DNA of 32,000 bases from Candidatus Saccharimonadota bacterium (GCA_963716945.1 OY970322.1:720001-752000), one strand, 5' to 3'; positions 13,736-30,297 are shown, counted from the stretch's first letter. Translations and numbers: made by a program. Notes: generated by a model from the sequence alone, not told the origin.

Positions 13736-14589
13736 GCCGGCACCAGCCTATTGAATTCCGGCGGCAAAGGCGCCTTAAAGGTATGGCGTTCGCCATCGGG
13801 CAGCGTTATCTCAAGACTCAGGGCGTGCAGGAACAGCCGCTCGGCCGGCCGGCCGCCATACAAAGTATCGCCGACAATCGGGTGGCCGAGATACTTCAGG
13901 TGGACCCGCAGCTGGTGGGTCCGCCCGGTGGCCGGCTTCAGCTCCAGCAAACTGAGACGCCCGTCAGTCTTAAGGACTTTGTACTCCGTCTGGGCCGGCT
14001 TGCCGTTGCTGCCGACCCTGAAAGTCTGGGGCTGCTTGGGGTTGCGCTCAATCGGCATGTCAATCAGGGCCTGCGGTGCTTTGGGCGTACCGTCTACGAC
14101 GGCCATATACGTTTTCTTAGTTTTGCGCTCTGAAAATTGTTTCTGGAGCTTATGGAGCGCTTGCGGAGTTTTGGCGCAAATCATGACCCCGCTGGTCGCC
14201 CGGTCCAGACGGTGGACTATGCCGGCGCGCTCCCCTTTGGGCGCCAGCATCCGGCCGCGCAGCCAGGTCGAAACCGTAGCTTCGGGATTAAAGGAGCCTT
14301 TGCTGTGGGTCAGCAAACCGACCGGTTTATTGATGACGACGCAGTCATCGTCTTCGTAGATGACCGGTAAATCGATCTCCGGGAAAGTGACCGTTTTGGC
14401 CTCATCGAAAACTATTTTGATCCGGTCGGCCGGCCGTATCTTATAGCCGGGCTTGAGCTGGGGAACTCCGTTGACCAGCACGTCGCCATCCTCGATTAGC
14501 CTGGCCGCAAAACCGCGGCTGAGACCGGGCTGTTTGCGTACGACATACTGGTCTAACCTCTCCGCCCTGCTAATCTCCAGGTTACTCAC
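13732..14589 (-). CDS. rluD: RluA-family 23S rRNA pseudouridine synthase (RluD-like) with N-terminal S4 domain
   Basis: S4-like RLDQYV...SRGFAARLIEDGDVLVNG and catalytic motif HRLDRATSGVMICAKT. The GTG start overlaps the trpS stop by 1 nt. Confidence 0.85.
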   Translation of the reverse strand: MSNLEISRAERLDQYVVRKQPGLSRGFAARLIEDGDVLVNGVPQLKPGYKIRPADRIKIVFDEAKTVTFPEIDLPVIYEDDDCVVINKPVGLLTHSKGSFNPEATVSTWLRGRMLAPKGERAGIVHRLDRATSGVMICAKTPQALHKLQKQFSERKTKKTYMAVVDGTPKAPQALIDMPIERNPKQPQTFRVGSNGKPAQTEYKVLKTDGRLSLLELKPATGRTHQLRVHLKYLGHPIVGDTLYGGRPAERLFLHALSLEITLPDGERHTFKAPLPPEFNRLVPA

Positions 14590-15662
14590 TATCCCCTCAG
14601 GCCGACGGCCTTTTGAACCTTCAAAAGCGCCGCGTTAGCCTGCTCGTTCATCAACCTTTCAGAAGCCGCCAGCTTGTCCTCAATTGCCTGGTCGTCAACA
14701 GCCGCCAGCTCGGCCTGGAAGCCTGCAAGGAATTGTCCGATGGCCTCGGCAACGGCGCTTTTCAGCGGGCCATACTGGGTCTGGCCGTCATATTCCTGCC
14801 TCACAGCAGCACGGTCCTGACCGCCGAACAAAGCTAATATATCCATCAGGTTAGCAATTCCCGGCTGGTTGGCCGGGTCATAAGCGATTTTGCCCAAGCT
14901 ATCGGTTGTAGCGGCCATTATCTTCTGCCGGGCTTCTTCCGGCGTGTCGGTTAGGAAGATAACGCCTTTAGCGGAAGCTCCGGACTTGCTCATCTTCTTG
15001 GCCGGGTCGGCCAGGTCTTTAATCCTGAGGCCCTGGTCTTTGCCGAAGAATTCGTGCTGCTGCTTGACCGGTTTCGGCACCGTGAACAGCTCGCCGAACT
15101 TATTGTTAAGCCGTTCAGCTATATCGCGCGTGAACTCCAAATGCTGAGTCTGGTCATCGCCCACCGGCACGTATTCGGCGCCGTACAGCAAAATATCGGC
15201 CGCCATCATGACCGGGTAGTTGAATAGGCCCACGCTGACCCGGCTGGCGGCCGCCAGCTGGTCGGCGGCTTGGTGCGCGGACGCCTGGTTTTCGGCCTGG
15301 CCTGATTTGTCCTTGAATTGGGTCATGCGGCTCATTTCGCCGAAGCCCGTGAAGCAGTCTAAGATCCAAGTCAGCTCGCTGTGGGCCGGCACATAGCTCT
15401 GCCGGTAAAGGTGGACATCGGGATTATCGAGAGGCAGCCCGGCAGCTGCGAAAACCCGCAGGTTCTGCCTGATGCCGGCCTGCAAGCCGGCATGGTCAAT
15501 CGGTGTCGTGAAACTATGCAGGTCCGGCACGAAGAGGTTGACCTGGTATTCGCCGGCCCTGTGCTTAGCCAGGTCGACAAGCGGCAGCAAAGCGCCGAGA
15601 TAGTTGCCGATATGAAGGTCGTTGTTGGCTCTCAGGCCGGTTAGGATAACTGGTTTGCTCAT
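14589..15662 (-). CDS. trpS: Tryptophan--tRNA ligase
   Basis: Class I signature LHIGNYLGAL (HIGH variant), KMSKS, and the TrpRS-typical GLFNYPVMMAADILLY. Confidence 0.9.
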   Translation of the reverse strand: MSKPVILTGLRANNDLHIGNYLGALLPLVDLAKHRAGEYQVNLFVPDLHSFTTPIDHAGLQAGIRQNLRVFAAAGLPLDNPDVHLYRQSYVPAHSELTWILDCFTGFGEMSRMTQFKDKSGQAENQASAHQAADQLAAASRVSVGLFNYPVMMAADILLYGAEYVPVGDDQTQHLEFTRDIAERLNNKFGELFTVPKPVKQQHEFFGKDQGLRIKDLADPAKKMSKSGASAKGVIFLTDTPEEARQKIMAATTDSLGKIAYDPANQPGIANLMDILALFGGQDRAAVRQEYDGQTQYGPLKSAVAEAIGQFLAGFQAELAAVDDQAIEDKLAASERLMNEQANAALLKVQKAVGLRG

Positions 15663-15737: not shown

Positions 15738-15765
15738 TTGTTTTGGATTGCTAATGGTATATAAT
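15738..15765 (+). promoter_or_regulatory. Candidate promoter of the aromatic operon leader
   Basis: TGGTATATAAT at 15755-15765 (TATAAT at 15760-15765; TGG-TATATA is readable as an extended -10). Weak -35 TTGTTT at 15738-15743. The leader ATG is only 10 nt downstream. Confidence 0.4.
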
Positions 15766-15775
15766 AATCATTGTT

Positions 15776-15841
15776 ATGAGTAAAGACTTAATGGCGAACA
15801 ACTATTGGTTTACGGGCCGCTTCCCGGGAGGTCTTTGTTAA
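15776..15841 (+). CDS. Candidate attenuator leader peptide MSKDLMANNYWFTGRFPGGLC (consecutive Tyr-Trp-Phe codons)
   Basis: 21-codon ORF, too short for the ORF track. TAT TGG TTT at 15803-15811 and an extra TTC at 15821. Stop TAA at 15839-15841 lies 30 nt before an intrinsic terminator. No clear SD, so it may be leaderless or have a short leader. Confidence 0.5.
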   Translation: MSKDLMANNYWFTGRFPGGLC

Positions 15842-15879
15842 AGCCGTCATAACCGCTTAGACAAAACACAAACCTCCCG
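15825..15879 (+). promoter_or_regulatory. Candidate antiterminator pairing of the attenuator
   Basis: CGGGAGGT (15825-15832, inside the end of the leader ORF) is the exact reverse complement of ACCTCCCG (15872-15879), which is the 5' arm of the terminator. The two structures are mutually exclusive. Confidence 0.5.
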
Positions 15880-15898
15880 CCAGGGAGGTTTTTTGTTT
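15871..15898 (+). terminator. Intrinsic terminator (attenuator) upstream of aroB
   Basis: AACCTCCC-GCCA-GGGAGGTT (8-bp stem, 4-nt loop) followed directly by TTTTGTTT. Located between the leader ORF and aroB. Confidence 0.75.
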
Positions 15899-15945
15899 CG
15901 ACTATCGCCGACACCTAAGATGATATGCTAAATAAGGTAAATTAC

Positions 15946-17040
15946 ATGAAGAAAATCACCGTCAGCCTCCTCACGCCGCCGCCCAAACAGGATTATACGA
16001 TTTACGTCTCTGCCGGCGCGATCGGCGAAATTGCTTCGTTGTATGACTTCAGCGGCTACTCCAAAGTGTTTATAGTTACCGACGACACTGTCGGACACTT
16101 GTTTCTGGAGAAGCTGAAGGCGGCATTGCCCGTCAAACCGGCCTCGACAGTCCTGCCGGCCGGCGAACAGCAAAAGAGCCTGGATAACATCGAAAAAATT
16201 TGGACGGCCATGCATGCGGCCGGGTGCGACCGCAAATCGCTGGTTATAAACCTGGGCGGCGGCCTGGTCAGCGACATGGGCGGCTTTGCGGCCGCGACCT
16301 ACATGCGCGGCGTTGACTTCCTGAACCTGCCGACGACCCTGCTGGCCCAGGTCGATGCCAGCGTCGGCGGCAAGACCGGCTTCAATTTCGACGGTATCAA
16401 AAACCTGGTCGGAACGTTTGACCAGCCGGCGGCCGTAATTATCGACACCCAAACCCTGGAGGAGCTGCCGGAACGCGAGTTCTTGTCCGGTTTCGCTGAG
16501 ATTATTAAGCACGGTCTTGTCGCGGACAAGGCCTACTTTGAGGCGGTGGCCGCCAAGCCGCCGCTGGAGTTTACGCCGCCCGAGCTGGAGGAGATCATCG
16601 CGCTCTCCTGCGCCATTAAGTCCGGCGTCGTAAGAGCCGACGCCGGCGAGCAAGGCAGCCGCCGGCTCATTAATTTCGGCCATACCGTCGGCCATGCCAT
16701 AGAATCGTTGAGCCTGGAAACCGGCAAACCCCTGCTGCACGGCGAAGCGGTCAGCATCGGCATGGTCGCCGAAGCCGGAATCTCGAAAAGCCTGGGTAAA
16801 TTATCCGGGGACGAGTTCAGGCGCATAACAGCCGTTTTGCGCGCCGCCGGACTGCCGGTAGCCGTTTCCGGCCTGGCGGTCGACGATATTCTGGCCAAAA
16901 TGCAATCCGATAAAAAGAATGAGTATGGCGGCGTGAACTTCACCCTGCTGGACGGCATCGGCCGGGCCCTTTACAACCAAGCGGCCGGCCGGCCGGTAGT
17001 AATTGAAGCATTGCAGCTGGTTATCAGGGAAAAGCCGTGA
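15946..17040 (+). CDS. aroB: 3-dehydroquinate synthase
   Basis: NLGGGLVSDMGGFAAATYMRGVDFLNLPTTLLAQVDASVGGKTG, and the metal-binding region NFGHTVGHAIE..LLHGEAV. Start ATG 15946 has TAAGGT 8 nt upstream; the ORF-track start at 15925 is the alternative. Confidence 0.9.
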   Translation: MKKITVSLLTPPPKQDYTIYVSAGAIGEIASLYDFSGYSKVFIVTDDTVGHLFLEKLKAALPVKPASTVLPAGEQQKSLDNIEKIWTAMHAAGCDRKSLVINLGGGLVSDMGGFAAATYMRGVDFLNLPTTLLAQVDASVGGKTGFNFDGIKNLVGTFDQPAAVIIDTQTLEELPEREFLSGFAEIIKHGLVADKAYFEAVAAKPPLEFTPPELEEIIALSCAIKSGVVRADAGEQGSRRLINFGHTVGHAIESLSLETGKPLLHGEAVSIGMVAEAGISKSLGKLSGDEFRRITAVLRAAGLPVAVSGLAVDDILAKMQSDKKNEYGGVNFTLLDGIGRALYNQAAGRPVVIEALQLVIREKP

Positions 17041-18323
17041 AATACGCCCAGCTGCGCCCCCTAGACCGGCCGGCCGAGAGCCGCCTAAAACTGCCCGGTT
17101 CTAAGAGTTATACCAACCGGGCTCTGGTACTGGCAGCCATGACCCGGCGTCCCGTTAAGATAACCGGGCCGCTGTTTAGCGACGATACGCAGGCTATGAT
17201 TGGCTGCCTGAGAGCCTTGGGCGTCGGGATTGACAGCGGTGAAGACTTTATCAATGTCAGCGGCGACATAACGGCGGTAACCAACCGCGACTATGACCTG
17301 GACGCCGGCTTGTCGGGCACCACCATGCGCTTCATGCTGGCCCTCTGCGCGGTGCTGCCCGGACGCCAAACCCTGCACGGCCAAAAGCGGCTGCATGAGC
17401 GGCCGGTCGGCGCCCTAGTCGAGGCCCTGAGGCAGCTTGGCGCCAATATCGACTACCTCGCCGAAGAGGGCTACCCGCCGCTGGCGGTGGCAGCGCCAAA
17501 GCTCGCCGCCGGCGAAGTTAAGATCAGCGGCCAAGAAAGCAGCCAATACCTATCGGCTCTGCTAATGGTCGCGCCGCTGGTCGGAGACACGACCATCGAG
17601 GTCGAGGGCGAGCTTATTTCCGGGCCTTATGTCGCAATGACAATTGAGGCCATGCGGCAGTTTGGCGTCAAGGCCGCTTGCGATAAGCGCCAGTACAGGG
17701 TTACCGCTGGCCAGAATTACGGCTGCTCCGATTACCAAGTGGAGGGCGACGTGTCGAGCGGATCGTATTTTTGCGCCGTCGCCGCCCTGACGGAGTCGAC
17801 TTTCACTTTGGACAATATAAGCCTCGATTCACTGCAAGCCGACATCGGTTTTCTGGACATTCTGCGTTTGATGGGCAACACCGTGAGCGGCAGCGGCAAC
17901 ACAGTAACCATTACGGGCAAAGGTGTTAGGCCGGTCAACGCCGATATGCGCGGCTGCCCGGACCAGGTCCAGACCTTAGCGGTTTTGGCGGCTTTTGCCG
18001 ACGGCGTTACCACTATTAACGGTGTTAAATCACTGCGCATCAAAGAGACCGAGCGAGTCCTGGCGGTGCAGCAGGAGTTAGCTAAAATGGGCATAAAAAC
18101 GGCCGCTACACCGGATACCCTAACGGTGTATGGCGGACGCCCGCAAGCGGCGGCCATAGCTACCTATAACGACCACCGGATGGCCATGGCCTTCGCGGTT
18201 GCCGGCACTAAACTGTCCGGCCTGTCCATTGGAGATCCTGCCGTAGTCAATAAGACTTTTCCGGATTTTTGGCAAAAGCTTGAGTCTGTCGGTGTCGGCA
18301 TAAATATCGTGGAGGAGCCATGA
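17037..18323 (+). CDS. aroA: 3-phosphoshikimate 1-carboxyvinyltransferase (EPSP synthase)
   Basis: LPGSKSYTNRALVLAAM, LRIKETERV, DHRMAMAFAVAG. The GTG start overlaps the aroB stop (GTGA). Confidence 0.9.
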   Translation: MKYAQLRPLDRPAESRLKLPGSKSYTNRALVLAAMTRRPVKITGPLFSDDTQAMIGCLRALGVGIDSGEDFINVSGDITAVTNRDYDLDAGLSGTTMRFMLALCAVLPGRQTLHGQKRLHERPVGALVEALRQLGANIDYLAEEGYPPLAVAAPKLAAGEVKISGQESSQYLSALLMVAPLVGDTTIEVEGELISGPYVAMTIEAMRQFGVKAACDKRQYRVTAGQNYGCSDYQVEGDVSSGSYFCAVAALTESTFTLDNISLDSLQADIGFLDILRLMGNTVSGSGNTVTITGKGVRPVNADMRGCPDQVQTLAVLAAFADGVTTINGVKSLRIKETERVLAVQQELAKMGIKTAATPDTLTVYGGRPQAAAIATYNDHRMAMAFAVAGTKLSGLSIGDPAVVNKTFPDFWQKLESVGVGINIVEEP

Positions 18324-18829
18324 AAATAGTCTTAATCGGTTTCATGGGTACGGGTAAGACAACTGCCGCGCCGCGGCTAGCCGCCAACCTCTGTCTTGAA
18401 GCTGTTGAGATGGACGACCTGATTGTCGCCAAAGCCGGCGGCAGAAGCGTAGCCGCTATTTTTGAAGCCGGCGGCGAAGCGGCTTTCCGCGAGCTGGAAA
18501 TGGCGGTCGCTAAGGACCTGGCCGGCAGCCGGAACGTCGTTATTTCAACCGGCGGCGGCGTGGTTACAAGTCCGGTGACAATGGGTTACTTAACGCAGGA
18601 GGCGGTTGTCGTCGAGCTAAAGGCACTGTTCAATACCCTGATGGAGAGGCTAGACCCCACAACGCCCAGGCCGCTTTTCCAGGACCAAGCCCAAGCCGAA
18701 ATGCTATATGGCCTGCGCCGGCCGCTTTATAGTAAGTATGCGGCTATTAGCGTCGCGACTGACGGCAAAACGGTAGACCAAGTCGTTGAAGCCATTACCA
18801 ACCAAGTCAATAAGGTTAAAAATTCATGA
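18320..18829 (+). CDS. aroK: Shikimate kinase
   Basis: IVLIGFMGTGKTT Walker A; about 170 aa; ISTGGGVV. ATGA overlap with aroA and GGAGGAG SD upstream. Confidence 0.85.
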   Translation: MKIVLIGFMGTGKTTAAPRLAANLCLEAVEMDDLIVAKAGGRSVAAIFEAGGEAAFRELEMAVAKDLAGSRNVVISTGGGVVTSPVTMGYLTQEAVVVELKALFNTLMERLDPTTPRPLFQDQAQAEMLYGLRRPLYSKYAAISVATDGKTVDQVVEAITNQVNKVKNS

Positions 18830-19668
18830 AGATTAATGCCTCGACCAAACTCTGCGTAGTCATCGGCGACCCGGTCGAAGACTCATTGTCGCCCCAGATA
18901 CACAATGCCGGCTACGAGAAGCTCGGTATCGATGACAGGTTCGTCTACACCGCCTGCCTGATCAGCTCCGAAAAGCTGGCCGACTTCGTTGCCGGCGCCA
19001 AAGCCATGGGCATCCGCGGTATTTGCTGCAAGATGCCGCACAAGCTCGAAATTATGCGCTACCTGGATGAAACAGACCCTGTCGCCAAGACAATCGGCGC
19101 CGTCAATACGGTAGTCAATGATAACGGCCGGCTGACCGGCTACAACACCGACTGGATCGGCATCGTTAGGCCTCTCGAGGCCCTAACCGGCCTCCGAGGC
19201 AAGCGCGTCGCCCTGCTCGGTGCCGGGGGTGCCGCCCGCGCGGCGGCTTACGGAGTTACTAAGCAAGGCGCGGAACTAACCGTTTATAACCGCACCCTCG
19301 AGAAAGCCCGTTTGCTCGCCGGCCAATTCGGCGGCCAGGCCCGGCCGCTCAGCCGGCTTGAAGAAGTTAAGTCTATGGATGTCGTCATTAACAACACCTC
19401 CGTCGGGGTCCCCCTTTCGGATAATGAGACGCCTTTGCCGCAGGCCTTCATAAGCCCCCGCCATATCGTCTTCGACGCCGTCTACGCCGGCGGCCCGACG
19501 CGCCTCATGAGAGAAGCCGGCGAAATCGGGGCGCAGGTTATTCCGGGCACCGAAATGCTGTTACACCAAGGCATGGAGCAATTCAAGCTCTTCACCGGCC
19601 GGGAAGCACCCGAATCGGCCATGCGCGCCGCTTTTATGGCCGCGCTCGGCTCTAAGGAGGATAAGTAA
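18826..19668 (+). CDS. aroE: Shikimate 5-dehydrogenase
   Basis: SLSPQIHNAGY, AVNTVV, GYNTDWIG, NADP-binding LLGAGGAARAAAYG. ATGA overlap with aroK. Confidence 0.9.
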   Translation: MKINASTKLCVVIGDPVEDSLSPQIHNAGYEKLGIDDRFVYTACLISSEKLADFVAGAKAMGIRGICCKMPHKLEIMRYLDETDPVAKTIGAVNTVVNDNGRLTGYNTDWIGIVRPLEALTGLRGKRVALLGAGGAARAAAYGVTKQGAELTVYNRTLEKARLLAGQFGGQARPLSRLEEVKSMDVVINNTSVGVPLSDNETPLPQAFISPRHIVFDAVYAGGPTRLMREAGEIGAQVIPGTEMLLHQGMEQFKLFTGREAPESAMRAAFMAALGSKEDK

Positions 19669-20348
19669 TGGCTATAAATTACTGCCTGCCGCTTATAAAG
19701 AACAACCGGGCCGAAATACTCGACTCAATCCGGACTAACGGCGACAGCTACAGTTACTTTGAAGTCTGGCTGGACTATATCGACCCGGTGGATGATGTTT
19801 TCATTAAGGATTTAATCGGCCTGGCGGGCGAAAAGTTAATCCTGCTATTTCGCCGCCGGAACCTCGAACCAATTAAAATGCCCCTGGCGCGGCGCTTGGA
19901 GATACTGCAACTGCTCGACCAAACCCCGGCTCGCGCCGACCTGGACATCACCACGCAGACGGCTGAGCTGGACTACTTGCGCGATAATGATTTGGACATT
20001 AAAATCATTACCTCCTACCACGATTACGAAAAGACGCCCGACACCGTGCGGCTAGAGGCGATTATTGCTACAATGGAAGCGTATCGGCCGGCCGTTTATA
20101 AGCTGGCTGTCAAGTGCGGCAACCAAGAGGACGCGCTGCGGCTTTTGCAGCAGCTCCTGTCCCTGAAAGCGCAAGATCGGGCGGCTATAGTCCTGGGCAT
20201 GGGCCCGGCCGGACTGGTAACCAGAGTTTTCGGCGCGCTGTGGGGTAACGAGATGACATTCGCGCCTTTGGCCGAGGGTCAAGAGTCGGCACCGGGCCAG
20301 TTGAGCCGGCAGAAGCTCGAGGTAATTTTTAAGGAATTAGGGGTTTAG
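19668..20348 (+). CDS. aroD: Type I 3-dehydroquinate dehydratase
   Basis: About 226 aa. [10 protein letters not shown] (the S-x-H-x-F/Y-x-x-TP type motif) and VYKLAVK (Schiff-base Lys region). 1-nt overlap with the aroE stop (TAATG). Confidence 0.75.
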
Positions 20349-20352
20349 CGTT

Positions 20353-21438
20353 ATGGCTGGCAACACTTTTGGACAACTGTTTCGAATTACGACTTTTGGC
20401 GAGTCACACGGCGGCGCAGTCGGCGTAGTTGTCGACGGCTGCCCGCCGGGTTTAGCCATAACCGAAGCCGATATCCAAGCCCAGCTTGACCGGCGTCGGC
20501 CCGGCCAGAGCAGCATCACCACTCCCCGGCAGGAACAGGATGCCATACATATACTATCCGGCGTATCCGACAGCCTGACGACCGGCACGCCGATTCTGCT
20601 GCTGGCCCATAACAAAGATGCCCGGCCCGAAGACTATGCCGAGCTCAAGAATCTCTACCGTCCGGGCCACGCCGATTACACGTTCTTCAAGAAATACGGT
20701 ATCAGGGACTGGCGAGGCAGTGGCCGGGCTTCGGCCCGCGAGACACTGGGGAGGGTGGCTGCCGGGGCGATTGCCGAAAAGTATCTCCGCGAAAAACTGG
20801 GTATCGAGTTCATCAGCTATGTCGAGCAGGTCGGCGATATTAAGACCGGGATCGATTTTAATGAAGTGGCGGCCAAGGACATCGAAGCGAATATCGTCCG
20901 CTGCCCGGACCCCCAGGCCGCCGCTGAAATGATTAAGCTGATTGAAGCCGTCCGCGACGAAGGCGACTCCGTCGGCGGCGTCATCCGGGGCGTTATCAGA
21001 GGCGTCCCGGTCGGACTGGGCGAACCGGTATTCGATAAATTGCCGGCCGACCTGGCCAAAGCCATGATGAGCATCAACGCCGTCAAGGGTTTCGAAATCG
21101 GCTCCGGTTTCGCCGGCGTCAGTTTGCGCGGCAGCCAGCACAACGACGAGTTCTACGTTGATGAGCACGAACAAGTCAGGACCCGGACCAACTATGCAGG
21201 CGGCACGCTCGGCGGCATCTCGAACGGCGAGACGGTTTATTTCCGGGTCGCCATCAAGCCGGTTTCAACGATTAAGAAGCGGCAGCAGACGATTAATACC
21301 AGTGAAGAAGCCGTAACCTTGGAGGCTACCGGCCGGCATGACCCCTGTGTCTTGCCGCGGGCCGTTCCTATCGTCGACGCAATGGCGGCGCTCGTCATCA
21401 TGGACCACTACTTGCGCCAGAAAGCCCAGAACTCATAG
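20353..21438 (+). CDS. aroC: Chorismate synthase
   Basis: [41 protein letters not shown]-like (GRASARET), [13 protein letters not shown]. Confidence 0.95.
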
Positions 21439-21440
21439 CT

Positions 21441-21722
21441 ATGGATACCCAGGATGACCGGTTGAAAGCCTTCCGCCGGCAGATTGACGGGTTCGACGAG
21501 GAGCTGCTGCGGATCCTGTCGGAGCGCACCGATGTAGCCCGGCAAATCGGTGCCTACAAGAAAGCCCGCGGCCTCGGCCTGACCGACCAAAAACGGATGG
21601 AAGCCGTGCTGGCAACCCAACTAGCCCGGGCGTCGGCAGCCAACCTGCCTGAAGACTTCGTGCGTGAACTGTATGAGGTCATCTATAAGCACACCATAAG
21701 TATCGAGGCCGAAACCCCATGA
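21441..21722 (+). CDS. Chorismate mutase, AroQ class (stand-alone)
   Basis: 93 aa. LKAFRRQIDGFDEELLRILSERTDVARQIGAYKK matches the AroQ helix-1/2 pattern (R..ID.iD..ll.Ll..R......ig..K). Confidence 0.8.
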   Translation: MDTQDDRLKAFRRQIDGFDEELLRILSERTDVARQIGAYKKARGLGLTDQKRMEAVLATQLARASAANLPEDFVRELYEVIYKHTISIEAETP

Positions 21723-21768
21723 GGGGCCGCCAAGCTGTAGCGGCCGGGTTGGCAGTCAATTTTAAGCC

Positions 21769-23100
21769 ATGAAGCAGATTAGCATAATCGGTTTCGGTAG
21801 GTTCGGCGGTACGCTTTACCGTCTCGTTAAGGACGACTTCAAGGTGGTCCTATATGATAAGGCCGGGATCAAGCCGGGCAGCGGCAAGTTCACTAAAGAC
21901 ACCGTTATCACCAATGACCTGGCGGAAGTTTATGCCAGCGACGTTGTCTTTTACGCCGTACCGGTTTCGGAATTCGAATCCGTTATCGCCGCCCACCGGC
22001 ACCTTTTCCGGCCGGATCAGCTGCTGATTGACGTCTTGGCCGTCAAACTATACCCGGCCAAAGTTTTCGAAAAGTACCTCAAAGGCACCGCCGTCCAAGC
22101 CATGCTGACCCACCCGATGTTCGGGCCCGATAGCAGTCAGGACGGTTTCGCCGGTTTGCCGATAATAGTCAATCAATTTACGGCCGACGACCGGAATTTC
22201 AAATTCTGGAAAACTTACTTCGCCGGCAAGCAGCTCCGGGTGGTCGAGCTGACGCCCGAAGCCCACGACAAGATGGCCGCCAATTCCATCGGTCTGACAC
22301 ACTTCCTAGGCCGCTTGCTGGAACAGTATAAATTCGCGGCCACACCGATCGACACGGTCGGCGCCAAGAAACTACTTGAAATCAAGGAGCAGACTTGCCG
22401 CGACACTTGGCAGCTGTTTAACGACTTGCAGCATTACAACCCCTACACCGAGAAAATGCGGCTCAAGCTGGGGGAGGCCTACGATGTCGTCTACAACAAG
22501 CTCCTGCCGGCTCAGGTCAGCCCCCGCTACCTGACGATCGGCATTCAGGGCGGCAAAGGCAGCTTCAACGAAGAAGCCGTGATGTACTGGCTGCAGCGCT
22601 CCGGTATCAAGGATTACAAGATTAGGTACCTCTACACCAGCGAGAAAGTGCTGGCAGCTTTGCACGCCGGTGAAATCGACCGCGGACAGTTCGCTATCCA
22701 CAACTCGATTGGCGGCATCGTCGGCGAAAGCGTCGAAGCCATGGCCAGGTACAAGTTCACGATCATTGAGGAGTTCGCTATCGTAATCGCGCATGCCTTG
22801 ATGATCCGCGACGACGCCGAATATAGTGATATTACGACCGTTATGGCCCATCCCCAGGTCTTCGCGCAGTGCAAGCGTACGCTGCCGGAGAAATATCCGA
22901 ATCTTAAACTGATAGCCGGCGAAGGCGAATTGATCGACCATGCTAACGTTGCCAAGCACATGGCGGACCACAAACTGCCCAAGAACATCGCTACCATGGG
23001 CAGCAAAGTCCTGGCCGGCCTGTATAATCTCAAGGTAGTGGAAGATAACCTGCAGGACGCCGACGAGAATTACACAAGCTTTTTATTGGTGAGCCGTTAA
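21769..23100 (+). CDS. Fusion protein: prephenate (or arogenate) dehydrogenase (N) + prephenate dehydratase catalytic domain (C), no ACT domain
   Basis: N-half: [13 protein letters not shown] Rossmann motif, LTHPMFGP. C-half from about aa 255: [27 protein letters not shown] (cf. P-x-ENS-x-x-G-x-V), [10 protein letters not shown] (cf. SHPQALAQC). It ends [10 protein letters not shown], where PheA proteins have N-x-TRF and the ACT domain begins. Confidence 0.75.
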
Positions 23101-23101
23101 T

Positions 23102-25132
23102 ATGAGCCGGGAGGAACTTGACGCCCTCTGTATAAATACCATCCGCATGCTGTCGGCCGACGCCGTCGAGAAAGCTAAATCGGGCCATCCGGGGCTGCCG
23201 ATGGGCGCCGCGGCCTTTGCCTACACGCTCTGGATGAAGCGGCTGCGGTTCAACCCTAAGAATCCCGATTGGCCCAACCGCGACCGTTTCGTCTTGTCGG
23301 CCGGCCACGGTTCAATGTTATTGTATAGTTTACTACACCTGACCGGTTATGACTTGCCCCTGGGCGAACTCAAACGCTTCCGCCAATGGGGTAGCCGGAC
23401 CCCGGGCCACCCCGAACATGGCTTGACACCGGGGGTCGAGACTACGACCGGGCCGCTGGGACAGGGCTTCGCCAACGGCGTCGGCATGGCCTTGGCCGAG
23501 CGTTTCCTGGCCGACCGCTATAACCGGCCCGGCCATCGGATTATTGACTACCGTACCTACGCTATCGTGTCGGACGGCGATTTGATGGAGGGCGTCGCGG
23601 CCGAGGCGGCCTCGTTTGCCGGCGGCCTGGGGCTGGGAAAGCTGATTTACCTGTACGACAGCAACCGAATTTCGATTGAGGGCTCGACCGACCTGACCTT
23701 CTGCGACGATACATCCAAGCGGTTTGAAGCCTACGGCTGGCAGACTCTTGTCGTCGACGACGGCAACGACATGGACGCCGTTGACCGGGCGCTGCAAGCC
23801 GCCCAAGAAGATCCCCGGCCGTCATTGATAATCCTGCGGACGCATATCGGTTTCGGCAGCCCCAATAAGCAGGACAGCGCCTCGGCCCACGGCAGCGAGC
23901 TGGGGGAGGCAGAACTGCTCAAAACCAAGCGCAACCTCGGCTGGCCCGCCAAACCGAATTTCCGGATACCGACCGAAGCTCTGGAACATATGCGCGGCGG
24001 CAGCGTCAAACGGGGTAAACGCCTGGAGGCCGAATGGAACGAGCGCTTCAAGGCCTATGAGCGGGCTTTTCCGGAGCCGGCCGCCGAGCTCAAGGCGCGG
24101 CTTGAGGGCAAACTGCCGGACGGCTGGGATGCCGGCTTGCCGGTTTTCAGGCCCGGCGACGGGCCGTTGGCTACCAGGGAGGCCTCCGGGGCTGCCATGA
24201 ACGCCATCGCCGCCAACCTACCGTTATTCGTGGGCGGGTCGGCGGACTTGGGGCCTTCAAACAACACGCGGCTGAAGGATTTCGGCGATGTCAGCGCCCA
24301 ACAATGGGAATCCGGCGGCCGCAACCTGCATTTCGGCGTCCGCGAGCATGGCATGGGCGGCATCCTTAACGGCTTGGCCCTGTCAAAGGCCATCAGGCCG
24401 TTCGGCGGCACCTTCTTGGTTTTTTCGGACTATATGCGCGGCTCGATCCGGCTGGCCGCCCTTATGAAACTGCCTGTGGTTTACGTATTGACGCATGACT
24501 CAATCGGCCAGGGCGAAGACGGTGCGACCCACCAGCCGGTCGAGCACCTGGCTTCGCTCCGGGCTATGCCTGGCCTGACAGTTATCCGGCCGTCGGATGC
24601 CGCCGAAACGGTCGAAGCGTGGCGGCAAGCCATCTTATCGTCCGACGGCCCGACGGCTTTGGTCCTGACCCGCCAGAAATTGCCCGTAATTGACCGGTCG
24701 GCCGGACTGGCGGCGGCCGATAACTTGCGCTACGGCGGCTACACTATCCGGAGCTGCAGGGACAAGCCCGACATAATCTTAATCGCGACCGGCTCGGAAG
24801 TGCCGCTAGCCCTCGAAGCCGCGGCGTTACTGGATAGGCAGGGCATGCGCGCGCAGGTTGTCGCCATGCCCAGCACCGGCTTATTTGAGCGGCAAAGCCA
24901 AAAATATAAGGACAGCGTCCTGCCGCCCGCGGTAACCGCCCGGCTGGTCATTGAGGCCGCTTCGCCGTTTGGTTGGCGCGAGTATGCCGGGCCGGGCGGT
25001 GGCATAATGGGTATTGCCGGATTCGGCGCGTCGGCACCGGGCAGCGTGATGATGGAAAAGTTCGGTTTCACGCCCGAAAACGTCGCCAAACGGGCAAAAC
25101 AGCTACTAGTTAAGAGAGGAGCAAAACCATGA
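23102..25132 (+). CDS. tkt: Transketolase
   Basis: 676 aa. [31 protein letters not shown] (ThDP motif), [18 protein letters not shown]. Confidence 0.95.
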
Positions 25133-25992
25133 AACCTAAAGACCTGAAGACCAGGATTTTCTTAGACAGCGGCGACCCGGCCGAAACTGAGCGGATATTG
25201 TCACTCATGGGTTTCTTGGATGGTCAAACGACTAATCCGACACTGGTGTCGCGCAACCCCCACGCCCGCGAACGCTTCGACAAAGGCGAGAAATTTTCGG
25301 CGGACGAGATTTATGATTTTTACAAGCAGGTGGTCGGCGACATATCACAACTAATCCCCGAGGGTTCGGTATCGATCGAAGTCTACGCCGATAAGACGAC
25401 CTCGGCCGAAGCCATGCTGGAGCAAGGCCGCAAGATGTACGGCTGGATCCCGAACGCCCATATTAAGTATCCTGTCACGGCAGCTGGCTTGGCGGCCGCG
25501 GAACAGAGTGTCAAGGCGGGCCTGCGGGTCAATCTAACGCTCTGCTTCTCCCAAGCCCAGGCGGCAGCCGTTTACGCGGCCACGAAGGGCGCCCAGCCGG
25601 GCGGCGCCTTCGTCTCGCCGTTTGCCGGCCGTTTGGACGATATCGGCGAGAATGGTATGGCGGCCGTCGAAAATATAGTCAGGATGTATGCCAAAGGTGA
25701 CGGCCACACCGAAGTTTTAGCGGCCAGCATACGGACATATGATCACTTTATGCAGTCACTGGCCGCCGGCGCGGACATCGTTACGGCCCCTTTCGGCATA
25801 CTGGAGCAATGGGCCAAAGCCGGACGGCCGCTGCCCGGGCCTGATTTCAGCTACCACCCGCCGGGTCTCAAAGCTATACCGTACGAACAGATTGACCTGG
25901 ACCAGCCATGGCAGTCATTTGACATACGGCATCCCCTGACCGACAAAGGCATTGACAGCTTCTCGGCAGACTGGAACGCCTTGATCGGCTAA
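25129..25992 (+). CDS. tal: Transaldolase (short TalC/FSA-type core with insertion and about 55-aa C-terminal extension)
   Basis: [19 protein letters not shown], Schiff-base Lys context [30 protein letters not shown] overlap with tkt. Confidence 0.85.
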
Positions 25993-26624
25993 ACCGAGCC
26001 CAGGCTGTCTATAATCTCAAGGCAGCGCTCGACCTTCGTAATATCCAGGTCGTCATTACCGTCGCGAACGCCGCCGGCAATGTCGATGCCGTAGGGGTTG
26101 GTTTGGGCCAGCCTGACGGCCAGGTTGTCGGGTGACAGGCCGCCGGCCAGGAATAGCCTGCCCGGTTCGGCGGCAATTACCTCGGCTGCCAGTTCGGCGT
26201 CGACAAGCTCACCTTGCCCTTGCCGCGGCCGGTCAAGCACGAAGTAGGCGGCCGGAAAATTGTTTACGAACTCAATGATGTCGGCTGCCGCTTGGCCCGG
26301 CAAGACGGCAATAGCCCGGATGACTTCAGAGTCCACGCCCCGGGCATAGTCGGCAGCCTCATTGCCGTGCAGCTGAACGTAGTCAACTTTTAGGCGGCCG
26401 GCATACTCATTAACTTCGCCAAGCGGCCGGCCGGCGAATAAGGCCGCGACCTGAAGGCTGCTGCCGGCCAGCTCGGCCATGATGGCCTCCGCCGTTTCAA
26501 GCGATACGCACCGGCTGGACGCAGCTATGAAGTTGAGGCCGACTAGGTCAACCCCGCTAGCCCGCAGCAGCTTGGCCTCGGCCACGGATTTGACACCGCA
26601 AATTTTCAGCTTGGCGGCGCTCAT
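25989..26624 (-). CDS. trpF: Phosphoribosylanthranilate isomerase
   Basis: LKICGVKSVAEA, GLNF, VQLHG, AGGLSPDN. Its stop codon (25989-25991) interdigitates with the tal stop (25990-25992). Confidence 0.85.
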   Translation of the reverse strand: MSAAKLKICGVKSVAEAKLLRASGVDLVGLNFIAASSRCVSLETAEAIMAELAGSSLQVAALFAGRPLGEVNEYAGRLKVDYVQLHGNEAADYARGVDSEVIRAIAVLPGQAAADIIEFVNNFPAAYFVLDRPRQGQGELVDAELAAEVIAAEPGRLFLAGGLSPDNLAVRLAQTNPYGIDIAGGVRDGNDDLDITKVERCLEIIDSLGSV

Positions 26625-27634
26625 CGGCTGGCCTGGAACTCCTTGAGCTTAGCACTGCCGGCACCACTGGCCAGGATAATTCTGGCCCTTTCGATGCCGA
26701 GCTCGATCGAGGGTTCCTGGCCGGCTACATAAAAGCCCAACCCGGCATTAAGCACCACTACCCGTTGCCTGGGGCTTAGGTCGGCTGCGGGCTGCATGAC
26801 TTCGGTAATCAGCAGGGCGTTCTGGGCGGCGTCATCACCTGCCAGTTCGGACAGCGGCGCCGCGGCCAACTTGTAGTCGCTGGCTTGCAGCCGTTTCTTG
26901 ACTACTATCGATTGCTTGATCTCAAACAGGTTGACCGGCGCGGACAGACTGGCTTCGTCTAGGCCGTCCTGACTGGATAATACGATGGCATGGTCATAGC
27001 CCATCTGGGCCATGACGCTCGCTAGCAGCTCGGCGTTGGCTAAGGAAAACGTGCCGACAATCTGGCGTTTGACGCCGGCCGGGTTCAACAGAGGGCCTAG
27101 CAGATTGAAAACGGTCGGAAAACCCAGCTGCCGGCGTATTTGCGATAAACGTTTAAGCGACGGGTGGTACAATGGCGCGAACAGGAAGACGAAGCCGTGG
27201 TCGGCTAGCGCCCGGACGGCAGCTTCAGGCGGCAAATCGACCGGTACGCCAAGGGCTTCCAACACGTCGGCACTGCCGCACTTGCTGGTCGCCGCCCGGT
27301 TGCCATGCTTAGCCACGCTGACATTGCCGGCCGCCAGCAAAAGGGCTGCGGCCGTAGATATATTAAAGGTCCCTTGCTGGTCGCCGCCGGTCCCGCAAGT
27401 ATCGATAGCCTGCCCGGTGTAAGGCACCCGGACCATCCGCTCCCGCATAGCGTCGACGAAGCCGCAGACCTCATCGACCGTAACGGCTTTTTTGGTCAAA
27501 GCCGTTAACGCCTCGGCGATATCATCATCGCCCAGGCTGCCGTCGTCTATCATCAGCGACAAGAAAGCTTGGGCTTCGGCCCTGCCCATGTTCTGCCGCA
27601 TCTTTATATGCCTGACGTACTCTTCGAAACTCAT
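26621..27634 (-). CDS. trpD: Anthranilate phosphoribosyltransferase
   Basis: DTCGTGGDQQGTFNISTAAA, AKHGNRAATSKCGSADVLEALG. 4-nt overlaps at both ends. Confidence 0.95.
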   Translation of the reverse strand: MSFEEYVRHIKMRQNMGRAEAQAFLSLMIDDGSLGDDDIAEALTALTKKAVTVDEVCGFVDAMRERMVRVPYTGQAIDTCGTGGDQQGTFNISTAAALLLAAGNVSVAKHGNRAATSKCGSADVLEALGVPVDLPPEAAVRALADHGFVFLFAPLYHPSLKRLSQIRRQLGFPTVFNLLGPLLNPAGVKRQIVGTFSLANAELLASVMAQMGYDHAIVLSSQDGLDEASLSAPVNLFEIKQSIVVKKRLQASDYKLAAAPLSELAGDDAAQNALLITEVMQPAADLSPRQRVVVLNAGLGFYVAGQEPSIELGIERARIILASGAGSAKLKEFQASR

Positions 27635-28215
27635 TTTACGGCCTCCTTCAGGAAGTTCTTAAGCAGCGCTTTGCCGGTTTCGGTGCGGAAAGACTCCGGG
27701 TGGAACTGTAACCCGAAAGTCGGGTAATTCCGGTGATGGAAAGCCATCACCGACCCGTCGCCGGCCACCGAATCAACTGCCAGGAACGAAGGCAAAGTCT
27801 TGGCGTCGACGACCAGTGAATGATAGCGCATTACGGTAATTTTGTCAGGCAGGCCGGCGAACAGCCCTTGCCCGCTATGGCTTAGGTCACTGGTTTTGCC
27901 ATGCATAATAACCGGCGCCTTGGTAACCGAGGCGCCAAAAGCGGCGCCGATGCCTTGATGCCCCAAGCAAATGCCGAGTATCGGGTAGGTTTGGTGGAAC
28001 TCTTCGATAACCTGGCGGTTGCCGCCAAAATAATCCGGATCGGTAGGGTCGCCCGGGCCGGGCGATATGACGATGTGGCTGAAGTCGCCGGCCTTGATCC
28101 TATTAACCGGTATCTTATTATTCCGGGCAACCGTCACCTCGTCGGCCAGCTCGCCCAAATACTGGTACAAATTATAAGTAAAGGAGTCAAAGTTATCGAT
28201 CAGCAGGACCTTCAT
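27631..28215 (-). CDS. trpG: Anthranilate synthase component II (glutamine amidotransferase)
   Basis: IDNFDSFTYNL, PILGICLGHQ (catalytic Cys), LQFHPES. Confidence 0.95.
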   Translation of the reverse strand: MKVLLIDNFDSFTYNLYQYLGELADEVTVARNNKIPVNRIKAGDFSHIVISPGPGDPTDPDYFGGNRQVIEEFHQTYPILGICLGHQGIGAAFGASVTKAPVIMHGKTSDLSHSGQGLFAGLPDKITVMRYHSLVVDAKTLPSFLAVDSVAGDGSVMAFHHRNYPTFGLQFHPESFRTETGKALLKNFLKEAVK

Positions 28216-29552
28216 GACCGTTCCTCGCTGATAAAGGGCTTCATGGCGCGGTCCATGGCGGCTTTTTTGTCGCTGACTTCCTGATATTCGCGTTCCGGTT
28301 GCGAGTCGTAAACAATACCCGAACCGGAGTGGAGGACCAGTTTGCCGCGGCAGGCACTGACGGAGCGGATATTGACGGCGTGCACCGAATCGCCGTTGTA
28401 GCTGAAATAACCGATCGTGCCGCCATAAGGGCCGCGTTCGTAGCCCTCGAGCTCGGCAATCATCTTAATGGCTTCGATCTTGGGGGCACCGCTGAGCGTA
28501 CCGGCCGGGAAACTGGCCGCCAAGGCATCGAAAGCGTCGCGGCCGGCTTCAAGCCGGCCGGAGACAATCGATGATATATGCTGGACGTGGCTGAGTTTCT
28601 TGATGTACATCAGGTCGTCAATCCGTACCGAACCGATCCGGCTGATGCGGCCGACATCGTTGCGCGCCAGGTCGACCAGCATGCTGTGCTCGGCCACTTC
28701 CTTTTCATCATCAAGCAACCGGCGGGCCAATTCGGCGTCCTCGGCGGCAGTCTTGCCGCGCCTGATGGTGCCGGCCAGGGCCTCCAAGTAAACCTCGTCT
28801 TGCGGATTGGTATGGACTAGCAACTCGGGACTGGCGCCAAGCGTGACGATAGGCCCGAATTTCATGAAAAACATGAATGGCGAGGGATTGATACGGCGCA
28901 GCTCACGGTACAGGGCCAGCAGGTCGCCGCTGTAGTCATACTCGTAGCGGTTGGCCAGTACGACCTGAAAAACCCGGCCGTTCCGGATATCGCCGCGGGC
29001 TTTTTCGATCATCCTGTCGTAGTCGGCGTTATCTTTGGCCGTGCCGGTAAATTTAATCGAGAGCCGGCCGGCCGGTGCCTTGGCCCCCTCATACCACTCC
29101 GAACGGTCTTGTCCGTAATAAAAATACTCGGTCTGCCGGCCAGGCCGGAAAACCAGTCCGTCGTTATAGCGGCCAAACTCGAAATCAAAGAAATCCCGGT
29201 CATAACCAAACTTCAGGCTAGGCTCCAGGTAATGAATAGCTTCGTGCGAAAAGTAGCCGACCAGACCGCCGACATAGCCGCCCGGCAGCTGCCTGTCGAA
29301 GCTGATTTGGCGGCGCAGCTCATCATAAGGCTTGACCCCGGCGTGCTCCCGGCCGTCGGTGAAGAACTTATTACCCCGGGCTGCGTACACCTGTTCCGGC
29401 GCGACTCCGATATAGCTCTGGCCGCTGGTTTGGGGCTGGTACTTGTCGGCCAAGGTTTCGAGCAAGAAACAGTAATCGTGTTCACCGGCCAAGCGCTCGA
29501 ATACGTCTAAGGGGTCTTGGCTTAAGCCGGTGGGCCGCGTCCGCAAGTTCAC
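28212..29552 (-). CDS. trpE: Anthranilate synthase component I
   Basis: FLLETL, SPELLV, LAGTIRRG, HSMLVDLARND, FPAGTLSGAPK, GPYGGTIGY. Preferred start GTG 29552 is 4 nt after the trpA stop. The ORF-track start at 29627 would overlap trpA by 71 nt. Confidence 0.9.
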   Translation of the reverse strand: MNLRTRPTGLSQDPLDVFERLAGEHDYCFLLETLADKYQPQTSGQSYIGVAPEQVYAARGNKFFTDGREHAGVKPYDELRRQISFDRQLPGGYVGGLVGYFSHEAIHYLEPSLKFGYDRDFFDFEFGRYNDGLVFRPGRQTEYFYYGQDRSEWYEGAKAPAGRLSIKFTGTAKDNADYDRMIEKARGDIRNGRVFQVVLANRYEYDYSGDLLALYRELRRINPSPFMFFMKFGPIVTLGASPELLVHTNPQDEVYLEALAGTIRRGKTAAEDAELARRLLDDEKEVAEHSMLVDLARNDVGRISRIGSVRIDDLMYIKKLSHVQHISSIVSGRLEAGRDAFDALAASFPAGTLSGAPKIEAIKMIAELEGYERGPYGGTIGYFSYNGDSVHAVNIRSVSACRGKLVLHSGSGIVYDSQPEREYQEVSDKKAAMDRAMKPFISEERS

Positions 29553-29556
29553 CGCC

Positions 29557-30297
29557 CTACCCCGCCGCCAATGATTTGACGTAAGCCAGGCCGCCGGCAA
29601 TGCCGGAGGTTTGGACGGCCTTGACAATGGCGCTGCCGACGACAGCCATGTCGGCTATCGATAAGGCGCTTTCGGCATCGGCGGCCGACGCGATGCCGAA
29701 ACCGACCATCACCTCGGCCGTAGACTGTTCCCTGATAGTATCTACCAGCTGCTTAAGTTGTTCGGCCGGGGCGTACTTATTGCCGGTTATGCCCCTTTGA
29801 CTGGTAACGTAGACGGACCCGGGCTTAAAATCGAGTACGGCCCTCAGCCGGCTGTCCGGCATGCCCGGGCTCAGAACAGGTACGAGTTCAATGCCATACT
29901 TGGCTGCCAGGCCGCGCAGATTGTCGAATTCGGGACTGTCATAAGGCAAATCGGGGACTATCAGGCCTTTGACGTCGCAATCGGCAGCTTGGCGGCAAAA
30001 CTCGTCCAAGCCGAAGTGCCGGACTTTCTGCAGGTAGCTCATGATGTAGATATCCGTGTCGACACCCTGTTGGCGGGCCGTTTTAATCAGCTTGAAGCTG
30101 CCGGCCGTGGTCATACCGGCCGCTAGGGCGGTGTCATTAGCCCGCATGATGGTTTCGCCGTCGGCGATCGGGTCCGAGAAGGGTATCTGGACTTCGATGG
30201 CCGCGACGCCGGCCCGGTTCAGGCCGGCGAGCAGCTCCAGGCAGGACTTCTCATTAGGAAAACCGGCTACGACATGGCACATCAACGCTTTACTCAT
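29557..30297 (-). CDS. trpA: Tryptophan synthase alpha chain
   Basis: EVQIPFSDPIADGETI, GLIVPDLP, GFGI. 8-nt overlap with the trpB 3' end. Confidence 0.9.
   Translation of the reverse strand: MSKALMCHVVAGFPNEKSCLELLAGLNRAGVAAIEVQIPFSDPIADGETIMRANDTALAAGMTTAGSFKLIKTARQQGVDTDIYIMSYLQKVRHFGLDEFCRQAADCDVKGLIVPDLPYDSPEFDNLRGLAAKYGIELVPVLSPGMPDSRLRAVLDFKPGSVYVTSQRGITGNKYAPAEQLKQLVDTIREQSTAEVMVGFGIASAADAESALSIADMAVVGSAIVKAVQTSGIAGGLAYVKSLAAG

Follow-up and report, generated by a model that had tools for sequence, protein, structure and literature searches.

A tkt-tal-bearing aromatic operon in a Saccharimonadales genome, the likely larger half of an 18.4-kb block between rpsI and tyrS

RESULTS

The ten-gene operon and a convergent trp unit likely form one aromatic amino acid block

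We analyzed a 32-kb stretch of DNA (G000:C1:720001-752000, here called the window) from a closed genome of 1,099,440 bp that is 94.7% complete by marker genes and whose close relatives are metagenome-assembled genomes (MAGs) of Candidatus Saccharimonadales/Saccharibacteria, members of Patescibacteria or the candidate phyla radiation (CPR). The pol III delta′, uS9, and uL13 proteins encoded in the window are of the bacterial type, consistent with this placement. The plus strand carries ten genes, aroB-aroA-aroK-aroE-aroD-aroC, a chorismate mutase gene, tyrA::pheA, tkt, and tal, which an initial annotation had read as an aromatic operon without a first enzyme and without an aminotransferase. We consider it likely that this operon is the larger half of a self-contained 18.4-kb aromatic amino acid block located between rpsI and tyrS, and the same confidence applies jointly to the whole explanation developed below, namely, the block, a tkt-tal pair co-inherited with it, a single transcript, attenuation, and the loss of an aminotransferase gene.

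As summarized in Table 1, profile searches with Pfam and NCBIfam agreed on the ten genes, their order, and their common strand as first annotated, and the junctions matched the sequence exactly as they had been listed, i.e., GTGA, ATGA, ATGA, TAATG (a 1-nt overlap), gaps of 4, 2, 46, and 1 nt, and ATGA. The family assignments were mostly above curated NCBIfam cutoffs; those of aroK, aroD, the chorismate mutase gene, tyrA::pheA, and tal were made on Pfam only, with equivalog scores below the cutoff. The 5′ end had to be corrected, since position 15776 is a real start but that of a 21-codon leader open reading frame (ORF), and aroB itself begins at 15925. In the tyrA::pheA product, prephenate dehydrogenase occupies approximately residues 1 to 240 and the catalytic domain of prephenate dehydratase (PDT) residues 257 to 443. 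Pfam did not find an ACT domain in this protein, and because the PDT match (profile positions 1 to 178 of 181) reaches the last residue, 443, this PheA is devoid of the ACT feedback domain. The fusion is conserved at 49 to 87% identity in 23 CPR-type loci, and a fused tyrA::pheA above 37% identity was found in none of 200 other sampled Saccharimonadia genomes. The cluster from aroB to tyrA::pheA also exists in other CPR classes, where tkt-tal does not lie downstream in the loci fetched.

A gene for 3-deoxy-D-arabino-heptulosonate 7-phosphate (DAHP) synthase is indeed absent from the window, but a canonical one lies 601 nt past its end, which renders the absence trivial. Searching the whole genome, we obtained one PF00793 match (216 bits; 752643-753524, minus strand), inside a 410-amino-acid (aa) ORF. 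This gene, aroG (G000:752601-753833, minus strand), encodes a type I-alpha (AroF/G/H) enzyme, scoring 368.3 bits with TIGR00034 (cutoff, 173.2) over residues 66 to 408 of 410 and 398 bits with NF009395 (cutoff, 343). Thus, the missing step 1 is a window-edge effect, and neither the noncanonical enzyme that had been envisaged for it nor the archaeal alternative of ADH synthase and DHQ synthase II is needed, since a canonical TIGR00034 gene is located inside the same block. In G258, G298, G206, and G276, aroG is likewise found upstream of trpC. All seven shikimate pathway enzymes are encoded, six in the window and DAHP synthase beyond it; for the terminal branches, chorismate mutase, TyrA::PheA, and trpEGDFCBA are present, and there are two generic class I aminotransferases elsewhere and no dedicated one. 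The pathway itself is ordinary and probably complete and contains no new step-1 enzyme. Judged from these assignments, the plus-strand unit would yield chorismate, prephenate, and the keto acid precursors of Phe and Tyr, and the convergent minus-strand unit, in the order Tyr-Trp-Phe leader, aroG, trpR-like gene, and trpC-trpB-trpA-trpE-trpG-trpD-trpF, would supply step 1 plus the tryptophan branch.

The block is bounded by tyrS, which is divergent from the aro operon, and by rpsI, the distance between the two being 18,368 bp (window coordinates 15663 to ~34030). In four closed genomes lacking the aro genes, rplM-rpsI-tyrS are contiguous (G018, G149, and G220 were checked directly and G325 by coordinates only), with an rpsI-tyrS spacer of 54 nt in G018 and of 1.1 to 1.6 kb in G149 and G220. 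In several Saccharimonadales MAGs, the arrangement of the block, with tyrS pointing away from aroB..tal and the latter converging on trpF..trpC, is kept at 59 to 87% identity. A further aro-minus genome, G301, carries other cargo of ~17.6 kb with ~15 ORFs between rpsI and tyrS (L048, G301:C1:787800-807400), so that insertions appear to recur at the rpsI|tyrS junction in this family. We did not find a compositional sign of recent transfer, as the GC content of the block is 58.5% versus 57.4% for the genome, within 1 standard deviation of same-size windows. In a TyrS tree, four aro-plus genomes grouped apart from four aro-minus genomes (support, 98/96), a hint that the former are a single subclade; it is no more than a hint, given the small sample of eight taxa and the physical linkage of tyrS to the block.

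Full-length tkt and long tal mostly co-occur with the aro cluster

The operon tkt encodes Transketolase_N, Transket_pyr, and Transketolase_C_1 in one chain. A second transketolase in this genome is split (tktN, 285 aa, and tktC, 325 aa, at 831-833 kb) and belongs to a housekeeping cluster, rpiB-rpe-tktN-tktC (831-834.6 kb), which does not include tal; no TAL_FSA gene other than the operon tal exists in the genome. Co-occurrence was assessed in 150 genomes of the same GTDB family, among which the unpublished genomes G201, G213, and G308 enter the tallies only, as aroC negative, Tal negative, and split-tkt positive. Split tkt, whose products are 36 to 42% identical to full-length Tkt, was present in 146 of the 150 genomes. 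Any transaldolase (PF00923) was found in 13, the long tal form in 11, and aroC in 11, and full-length tkt (61 to 81% identity) was found in 12, these being all 11 aroC-positive genomes plus the incomplete G257. Long tal overlaps the aroC set in nine genomes, and where the two sets disagree, the assemblies are fragmented: contig ends interrupt G285 and G291, the completeness of G257 is 53%, and the tal of G302 is on a 2.4-kb contig. Wherever the contig continues, full-length tkt stands directly before tal in this sample. Because full-length tkt and long tal track the aro cluster and split tkt is near-universal, tkt-tal appears to be an extra, accessory pair co-inherited with the pathway, with split tkt as the housekeeping copy.

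These data lend support to the earlier proposal that tkt-tal couples the supply of erythrose-4-phosphate (E4P) to the pathway, the pair occurring almost only with the aro cluster. In combination with rpe and rpiB from the housekeeping set, Tkt and Tal would allow a net conversion of fructose-6-phosphate (F6P) plus two glyceraldehyde-3-phosphate (GAP) into three E4P, a stoichiometry that follows from the textbook reactions and a flux direction that is predicted. Several points weigh against such a dedicated pair. In G326, a full-length-type tkt occurs as two pieces and neither aro nor tal is present, tal lies on short contigs without detected aroC in G302 and G257, and G301 and G284 carry a different, short Tal. 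Since the family genomes are kin, the co-occurrence counts carry less statistical weight than the same number of independent cases would, and transketolase alone can make E4P, the need for Tal being a stoichiometric argument. The two transketolase pieces of G326 (G326:C4:9209-11132) are adjacent, show 66% and 51% identity, and may be the remnant of a lost aromatic block.

We also weighed whether tkt and tal are general genes of the nonoxidative pentose phosphate pathway that came to lie next to aro by chance and have no pathway-specific role. As tal is the sole TAL_FSA gene, any Tal-dependent flux must use the operon copy, and the closest non-CPR relatives of the full-length Tkt look like housekeeping genes, located beside rpiB or unrelated genes; both facts would suit such a role. 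Set against them are the separate rpiB-rpe-tktN-tktC cluster, the abundance of split tkt versus the rarity of Tal in the family, and the tie of full-length tkt and long tal to the aro cluster, so that we regard a chance neighborhood as unlikely and retain a pair co-inherited with the pathway. The nearest non-CPR relatives of this Tkt were encoded in Anaerolineae MAGs and on a 3.8-Mb contig (63 to 66% identity), not beside tal or aro genes. Given the much lower identity to the CPR split Tkt stated above, this suggests that full-length tkt may have been acquired from outside the CPR. CPR genomes typically contain rpe, rpi, and tkt but lack transaldolase (PMC7143001).

Tal is a transaldolase with internal insertions

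The product of tal is 287 aa long versus ~215 to 225 aa expected for short transaldolases. It had been described as a short TalC/FSA-type (FSA, fructose-6-phosphate aldolase) core with an insertion and a C-terminal extension of ~55 aa. The core and the insertion were borne out; the extension is really an internal insertion of ~38 aa at approximately residues 229 to 266, between the barrel and a retained canonical C-terminal helix (269 to 285). Smaller insertions were found near residues 41 to 60, and an extra helix was seen near residues 44 to 51 in an AlphaFold model made from 37 homologues (predicted local distance difference test score, 94.7). The loop at 229 to 266 is conserved and mostly nonregular, and Trp228, Pro234, Pro236, Tyr242, Trp261, and His268 are invariant in the 37 homologues.

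In Foldseek searches, the best matches were the short transaldolases 1vpx, 1wx0, 3r8r, and 3s0c (probability, 1.00; TM-score on the target, 0.81 to 0.89), and both in sequence and in fold, the nearest proteins are established short transaldolases, with 30 to 35% identity. Asp13, Glu84, Lys113, Thr137, and Phe165 align with Asp6, Glu60, Lys86, Thr110, and Phe132 of the Thermoplasma transaldolase (3s0c), which we take to be its catalytic residues, the Lys forming the Schiff base; the Glu and the Phe are presumably Tal specific, FSA having Gln and Tyr instead. An exhaustive search returned ~120 clusters (50% identity) with E values of ≤1e-30, most of which belong to a distinct clade of 270- to 300-aa proteins; this clade ranks ahead of the classic ~215-aa forms, and its clusters carry the name "transaldolase."

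None of the NCBIfam Tal/FSA models reached its cutoff with this protein, the best being TIGR00875 fsa_talC_mipB with 138.4 bits versus 245.95. That the best model is named for FSA and falls short of its cutoff could point to an enzyme of the FSA or sulfofructose transaldolase type with another role, and structures of sulfofructose transaldolase (8bc2 and 8bc3) and FSA do occur, lower, in the match lists. Yet the protein has Glu and not Gln, and Phe and not Tyr in SPF(A/V)GR, as seen in the alignment to 3s0c and its E60Q/F132Y variant 4xz9, its closest sequences and folds are those of the short transaldolases named above, and the tal gene always follows tkt. A nontransaldolase function is thus very improbable, and we regard Tal as a true transaldolase of the subfamily 4 type that carries insertions inside the chain.

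The operon is probably a single transcription unit

Of the nine junctions, eight either overlap or are no wider than 4 nt, no plus-strand terminator of any quality was found between 15.9 and 26.0 kb, and promoter-like matches were not above those in shuffled sequence (6 found versus 5.1 expected). The single, translationally coupled transcript proposed in the initial annotation is supported by this tight packing and by the lack of a convincing internal terminator; the transcript itself is a prediction from the sequence, according to which the ten genes probably form one such unit. Against a strictly single unit, the relatives G206 and G298 have inserts of 0.4 to 2.4 kb between tyrA::pheA and tkt, and since these are tolerated, tkt-tal may also have its own promoter.

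It is conceivable, at a probability that we place well below even, that the ten genes are split among several transcription units and that internal promoters, e.g., before tyrA::pheA or tkt, leave only part of them answering to the leader. The 46-nt spacer in front of tyrA::pheA appears to mark the site of a former gene, the inserts in the relatives include opposite-strand ORFs and tkt-tal is nonetheless kept, a weak promoter-like match is located at 22798-22827 inside pheA, and most relatives are without the aroB leader. The junctions, the missing terminators, and the background-level promoter matches given above count against a split, and we therefore favor a single transcript.

A Tyr-Trp-Phe leader may control the operon by attenuation

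The region upstream of aroB bears the hallmarks of an attenuator, i.e., a short ORF with regulated codons, an intrinsic terminator, and a competing antiterminator (Table 1). Because the extended -10 element lies 10 nt before the ATG, the leader mRNA would be nearly leaderless. The terminator, a 9-bp GC-rich hairpin (stem, 15870-15891) followed by a T-run to 15897, is the only strong plus-strand terminator match in 15-27 kb. The 3′ part of the leader, that is, the antiterminator segment, duplicates the terminator 3′ arm, and the free RNA therefore folded into the antiterminator. When a ribosome footprint was masked at the stop codon, the terminator formed, and the antiterminator was kept when the stall was placed at Tyr or, provided that the footprint was short, at Trp. 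A ribosome-mediated attenuator of this kind would set the expression of the aro operon by sensing charged Tyr, Trp, and Phe tRNAs, and such control fits a PheA without the ACT feedback domain. A gathering-threshold Rfam scan of the window plus L001 returned four tRNAs only and no T-box or other riboswitch.

The leaders of aroG in G000, G298, and G276, which represent three genera, share the -10 box, the leaderless ATG, the Y-W-F motif (Y-T-W-F in G276), and the terminator. The aroB leader resembles them in layout and partly in sequence (YWFTG..GGL), and it looks like a lineage-specific duplication. Attenuation by Tyr-Trp-Phe leader peptides is how the system appears when read from sequence, and two observations weaken that reading for the aro-tkt-tal unit: a masked stall at Phe gave the terminator and not the antiterminator, and no genome but G000 showed the aroB leader, the tyrS-aroB spacers of G298, G206, G299, and G258 being short and without such an ORF. 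Leader control is thus not a general feature of this unit.

The dedicated aminotransferase gene appears to have been lost

Profile searches did not detect a class I/II aminotransferase in the 32-kb window, as the initial annotation had stated, and its suggestion that this step is encoded elsewhere holds, since the genome contains two class I genes, one for a 385-aa AspAT-like protein (686937-688094) and one for a 432-aa PRK06855-type protein (954859-956157). The remaining PF00155 matches are GlyA, a NifS-type desulfurase, and ArgD. The absence is nevertheless not trivial, because relatives keep a dedicated gene in the operon. A 383-aa class I aminotransferase is encoded exactly between the chorismate mutase gene and tyrA::pheA in G251 (L010) and G276 (L028/L036), and an orthologue with 51 to 60% identity to the L010 gene lies directly before tyrA::pheA in Levyibacteriota-labelled and other CPR loci (L014, L017, L020, L021, and L025). 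The two aminotransferases of G000 were ruled out as relocated copies of the in-cluster gene, with 27 to 28% identity only. As the relatives have the gene at this junction and the G000 genes are unrelated to it, the 46-nt spacer, the sole sizeable gap in the ten-gene operon, is best explained as the place that a lost gene once occupied; the cluster-encoded aminotransferase appears to have been lost specifically in this lineage. The final transamination would then have to rely on one of the two unrelated class I enzymes.

In G206, the same slot holds Bro-N-domain and HNH endonuclease genes (L009:6853-8354) within the aro operon, which suggests that a mobile element displaced the aminotransferase gene there.

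The convergent unit and other features

The tal and trpF stops overlap by 4 nt at 25989-25992 (CTAA on both strands). There is no terminator between the convergent operons, nor does the aro operon have one of its own, so transcripts of either operon are expected to continue antisense into its neighbor. In G276, the stops overlap in the same way, and the gaps in other relatives range from 13 nt to 1.7 kb.

The trpR-like gene (G000:C1:752297-752563, equivalent to L001:1155-1421) fills an apparent 290-nt gap between aroG and trpC. It is preceded by a near-palindromic CTAG box, TACTAGTATGCTAGTAT, that looks to double as the leaderless promoter of the gene, and box and gene are conserved in G298. 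Further copies of the box were found neither in the window nor in the genome, and because it is unique, nothing points to control of the aro-tkt-tal unit by the TrpR-like protein. The aroG product has an N-terminal extension of ~60 aa before its AroG-like core (L001:1459-2691, minus strand), which is covered in tblastn alignments to G298 and G276 and hence is conserved; its role could be regulatory.

Elsewhere, CTAG is underrepresented genome-wide in G000 (1193 observed versus ~4100 expected from base composition), and the minus strand of the window at 9668-12109 encodes an unusual 813-aa protein with repeated weak helix-turn-helix matches (Bac_DnaA_C, HTH_20, Sigma70_r4_2, and MarR) and no other recognizable domain.

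TABLE 1 Features of the aromatic block in window coordinates (values above 32000 are window equivalents beyond its end)
Feature	Position	Strand	Basis or remark
tyrS, tyrosyl-tRNA synthetase	14589-15662	-	PF00579, 188 bits; left edge of block
Extended -10 element, promoter-like, TGGTATATAAT	15755-15765	+	Sequence reading; putative function
21-codon leader ORF, peptide MSKDLMANNYWFTGRFPGGLC	15776-15841	+	Tyr-Trp-Phe at codons 10-12
Putative attenuator RNA	15819-15897	+	Antiterminator segment CCCGGGAGGT (~15823-15832) versus intrinsic terminator
aroB, 3-dehydroquinate synthase	15925-17040	+	TIGR01357, 349 bits (cutoff, 305)
aroA, 5-enolpyruvylshikimate-3-phosphate (EPSP) synthase	17037-18323	+	TIGR01356, 421 bits (cutoff, 287)
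aroK, shikimate kinase	18320-18829	+	PF01202, 123 bits; NCBIfam equivalog models below cutoff
aroE, shikimate dehydrogenase	18826-19668	+	NF001319, 258 bits (cutoff, 252); TIGR00507, 229 bits
aroD, type I 3-dehydroquinate dehydratase, divergent	19668-20348	+	PF01487, 106 bits; TIGR01093, 87 bits (below cutoff, 139)
aroC, chorismate synthase	20353-21438	+	NF003793, 485 bits
AroQ-class (CM_2) chorismate mutase, 93 aa, stand-alone	21441-21722	+	PF01817, 72 bits
Spacer, 46 nt, read as empty aminotransferase slot	21723-21768	+	Comparison with relatives
tyrA::pheA fusion, 443 aa	21769-23100	+	PF02153 and PF00800
tkt, full-length bacterial-type transketolase, 676 aa	23102-25132	+	TIGR00232, 870.8 bits (cutoff, 682.25)
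tal, 287-aa transaldolase, subfamily-4 core with insertions	25129-25992	+	PF00923, 160 bits (cutoff, 27)
trpF	25989-26624	-	Pfam
trpD	26621-27634	-	Pfam
trpG	27631-28215	-	Pfam
trpE	28212-29627	-	Pfam
trpA	29557-30297	-	Pfam
trpB	30290-31492	-	Pfam
trpC, cut by window end	from 31489	-	Pfam
trpR-like gene, 88 aa	32297-32563	-	PF01371, 63 bits
aroG, DAHP synthase	32601-33833	-	PF00793, TIGR00034, NF009395
Second Tyr-Trp-Phe leader with terminator	~33850-34000	-	Sequence reading; conserved in relatives

DISCUSSION

The placement of transketolase genes among aromatic genes has a precedent in archaea such as Thermoproteus tenax, where tktA/tktB (TTX_1754/1753) lie inside an aromatic amino acid cluster, with the stated rationale that E4P is formed from F6P and GAP for the shikimate pathway (PMC3189178). 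The present case differs in that the host is a CPR bacterium, that a full-length bacterial-type tkt is present in addition to a split housekeeping tkt, that a transaldolase is included, and that the pair is found only in cluster-bearing genomes, with few exceptions. A trifunctional TyrA-AroQ-PheA fusion of the Archaeoglobus fulgidus type (as cited in PMC11237513) likewise joins prephenate dehydrogenase and prephenate dehydratase in one polypeptide. In the fusion described here, by contrast, TyrA is joined directly to PheA, chorismate mutase is encoded by a separate upstream gene for 93 aa, and no ACT domain follows the PDT domain. As for Tal, its TIM-barrel core, its catalytic Asp, Glu, Lys, Thr, and Phe, and its C-terminal helix are also those of the short transaldolases of Thermoplasma acidophilum (3s0c), Thermotoga maritima (1vpx), Thermus (1wx0), and B. 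subtilis (3r8r), and it differs from them in its length, in the insertions at 41 to 60 and 229 to 266, and in belonging to a distinct long clade.

The aromatic supraoperon of Bacillus subtilis has the order aroF-aroB-aroH-trpEDCFBA-hisC-tyrA-aroE, and enteric bacteria possess trp and phe leader attenuators. With these systems the block has in common that genes of the common pathway and of the Trp and Tyr/Phe branches are packed together, stops overlapping starts, and that control acts through charged tRNA or the Trp level, which in G000 is a prediction. In contrast to the B. subtilis arrangement, there are two convergent units here and not one nested operon, tkt-tal and a TrpR-family gene are included, and the in-cluster aminotransferase (hisC in B. 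subtilis) appears to have been lost. A further difference from these systems is that the G000 leader contains single Tyr, Trp, and Phe codons and that its translation appears to start from a leaderless mRNA.

CPR/Patescibacteria are usually described as being without amino acid biosynthesis and often without transaldolase (PMC7143001; PMC13707452). Our full-text literature searches found no paper on aromatic biosynthesis or a tkt-tal linkage in Saccharibacteria or the CPR, which is not proof that none exists. Against this background, a minority subclade of Saccharimonadales, ~7% of the sampled family genomes, has what appears to be a full aromatic pathway as one discrete block. What is noteworthy is the dedicated tkt-tal in a normally transaldolase-less, auxotrophic lineage and the presence of an 18-kb block at the rpsI|tyrS slot and, further, the lost aminotransferase slot, the ACT-less TyrA::PheA fusion, and the twin Tyr-Trp-Phe leaders. 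The block is a clean natural case of precursor supply genes packaged and co-inherited with a biosynthetic pathway, and aroC, long tal, and full-length tkt at the rpsI|tyrS slot provide a marker set for less host-dependent Saccharibacteria. The block also suggests which nutrients the hosts of these bacteria fail to provide.

More tentatively, and as a speculation that we would at present rather doubt than assert, the 18.4-kb block could be a self-sufficient, transferable "aromatic prototrophy module" of a Saccharimonadales subclade, gained at the rpsI|tyrS slot with its own precursor supply enzymes and regulators. The enzymes may be the Chloroflexota-like full-length transketolase and the long-form transaldolase, and the regulators may be the Tyr-Trp-Phe attenuators and the TrpR-like repressor. 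If this were true, a transaldolase-less, host-dependent CPR lineage would have gained the ability to make the three costliest amino acids, which could reflect a host that does not supply aromatic amino acids or a benefit to the host.

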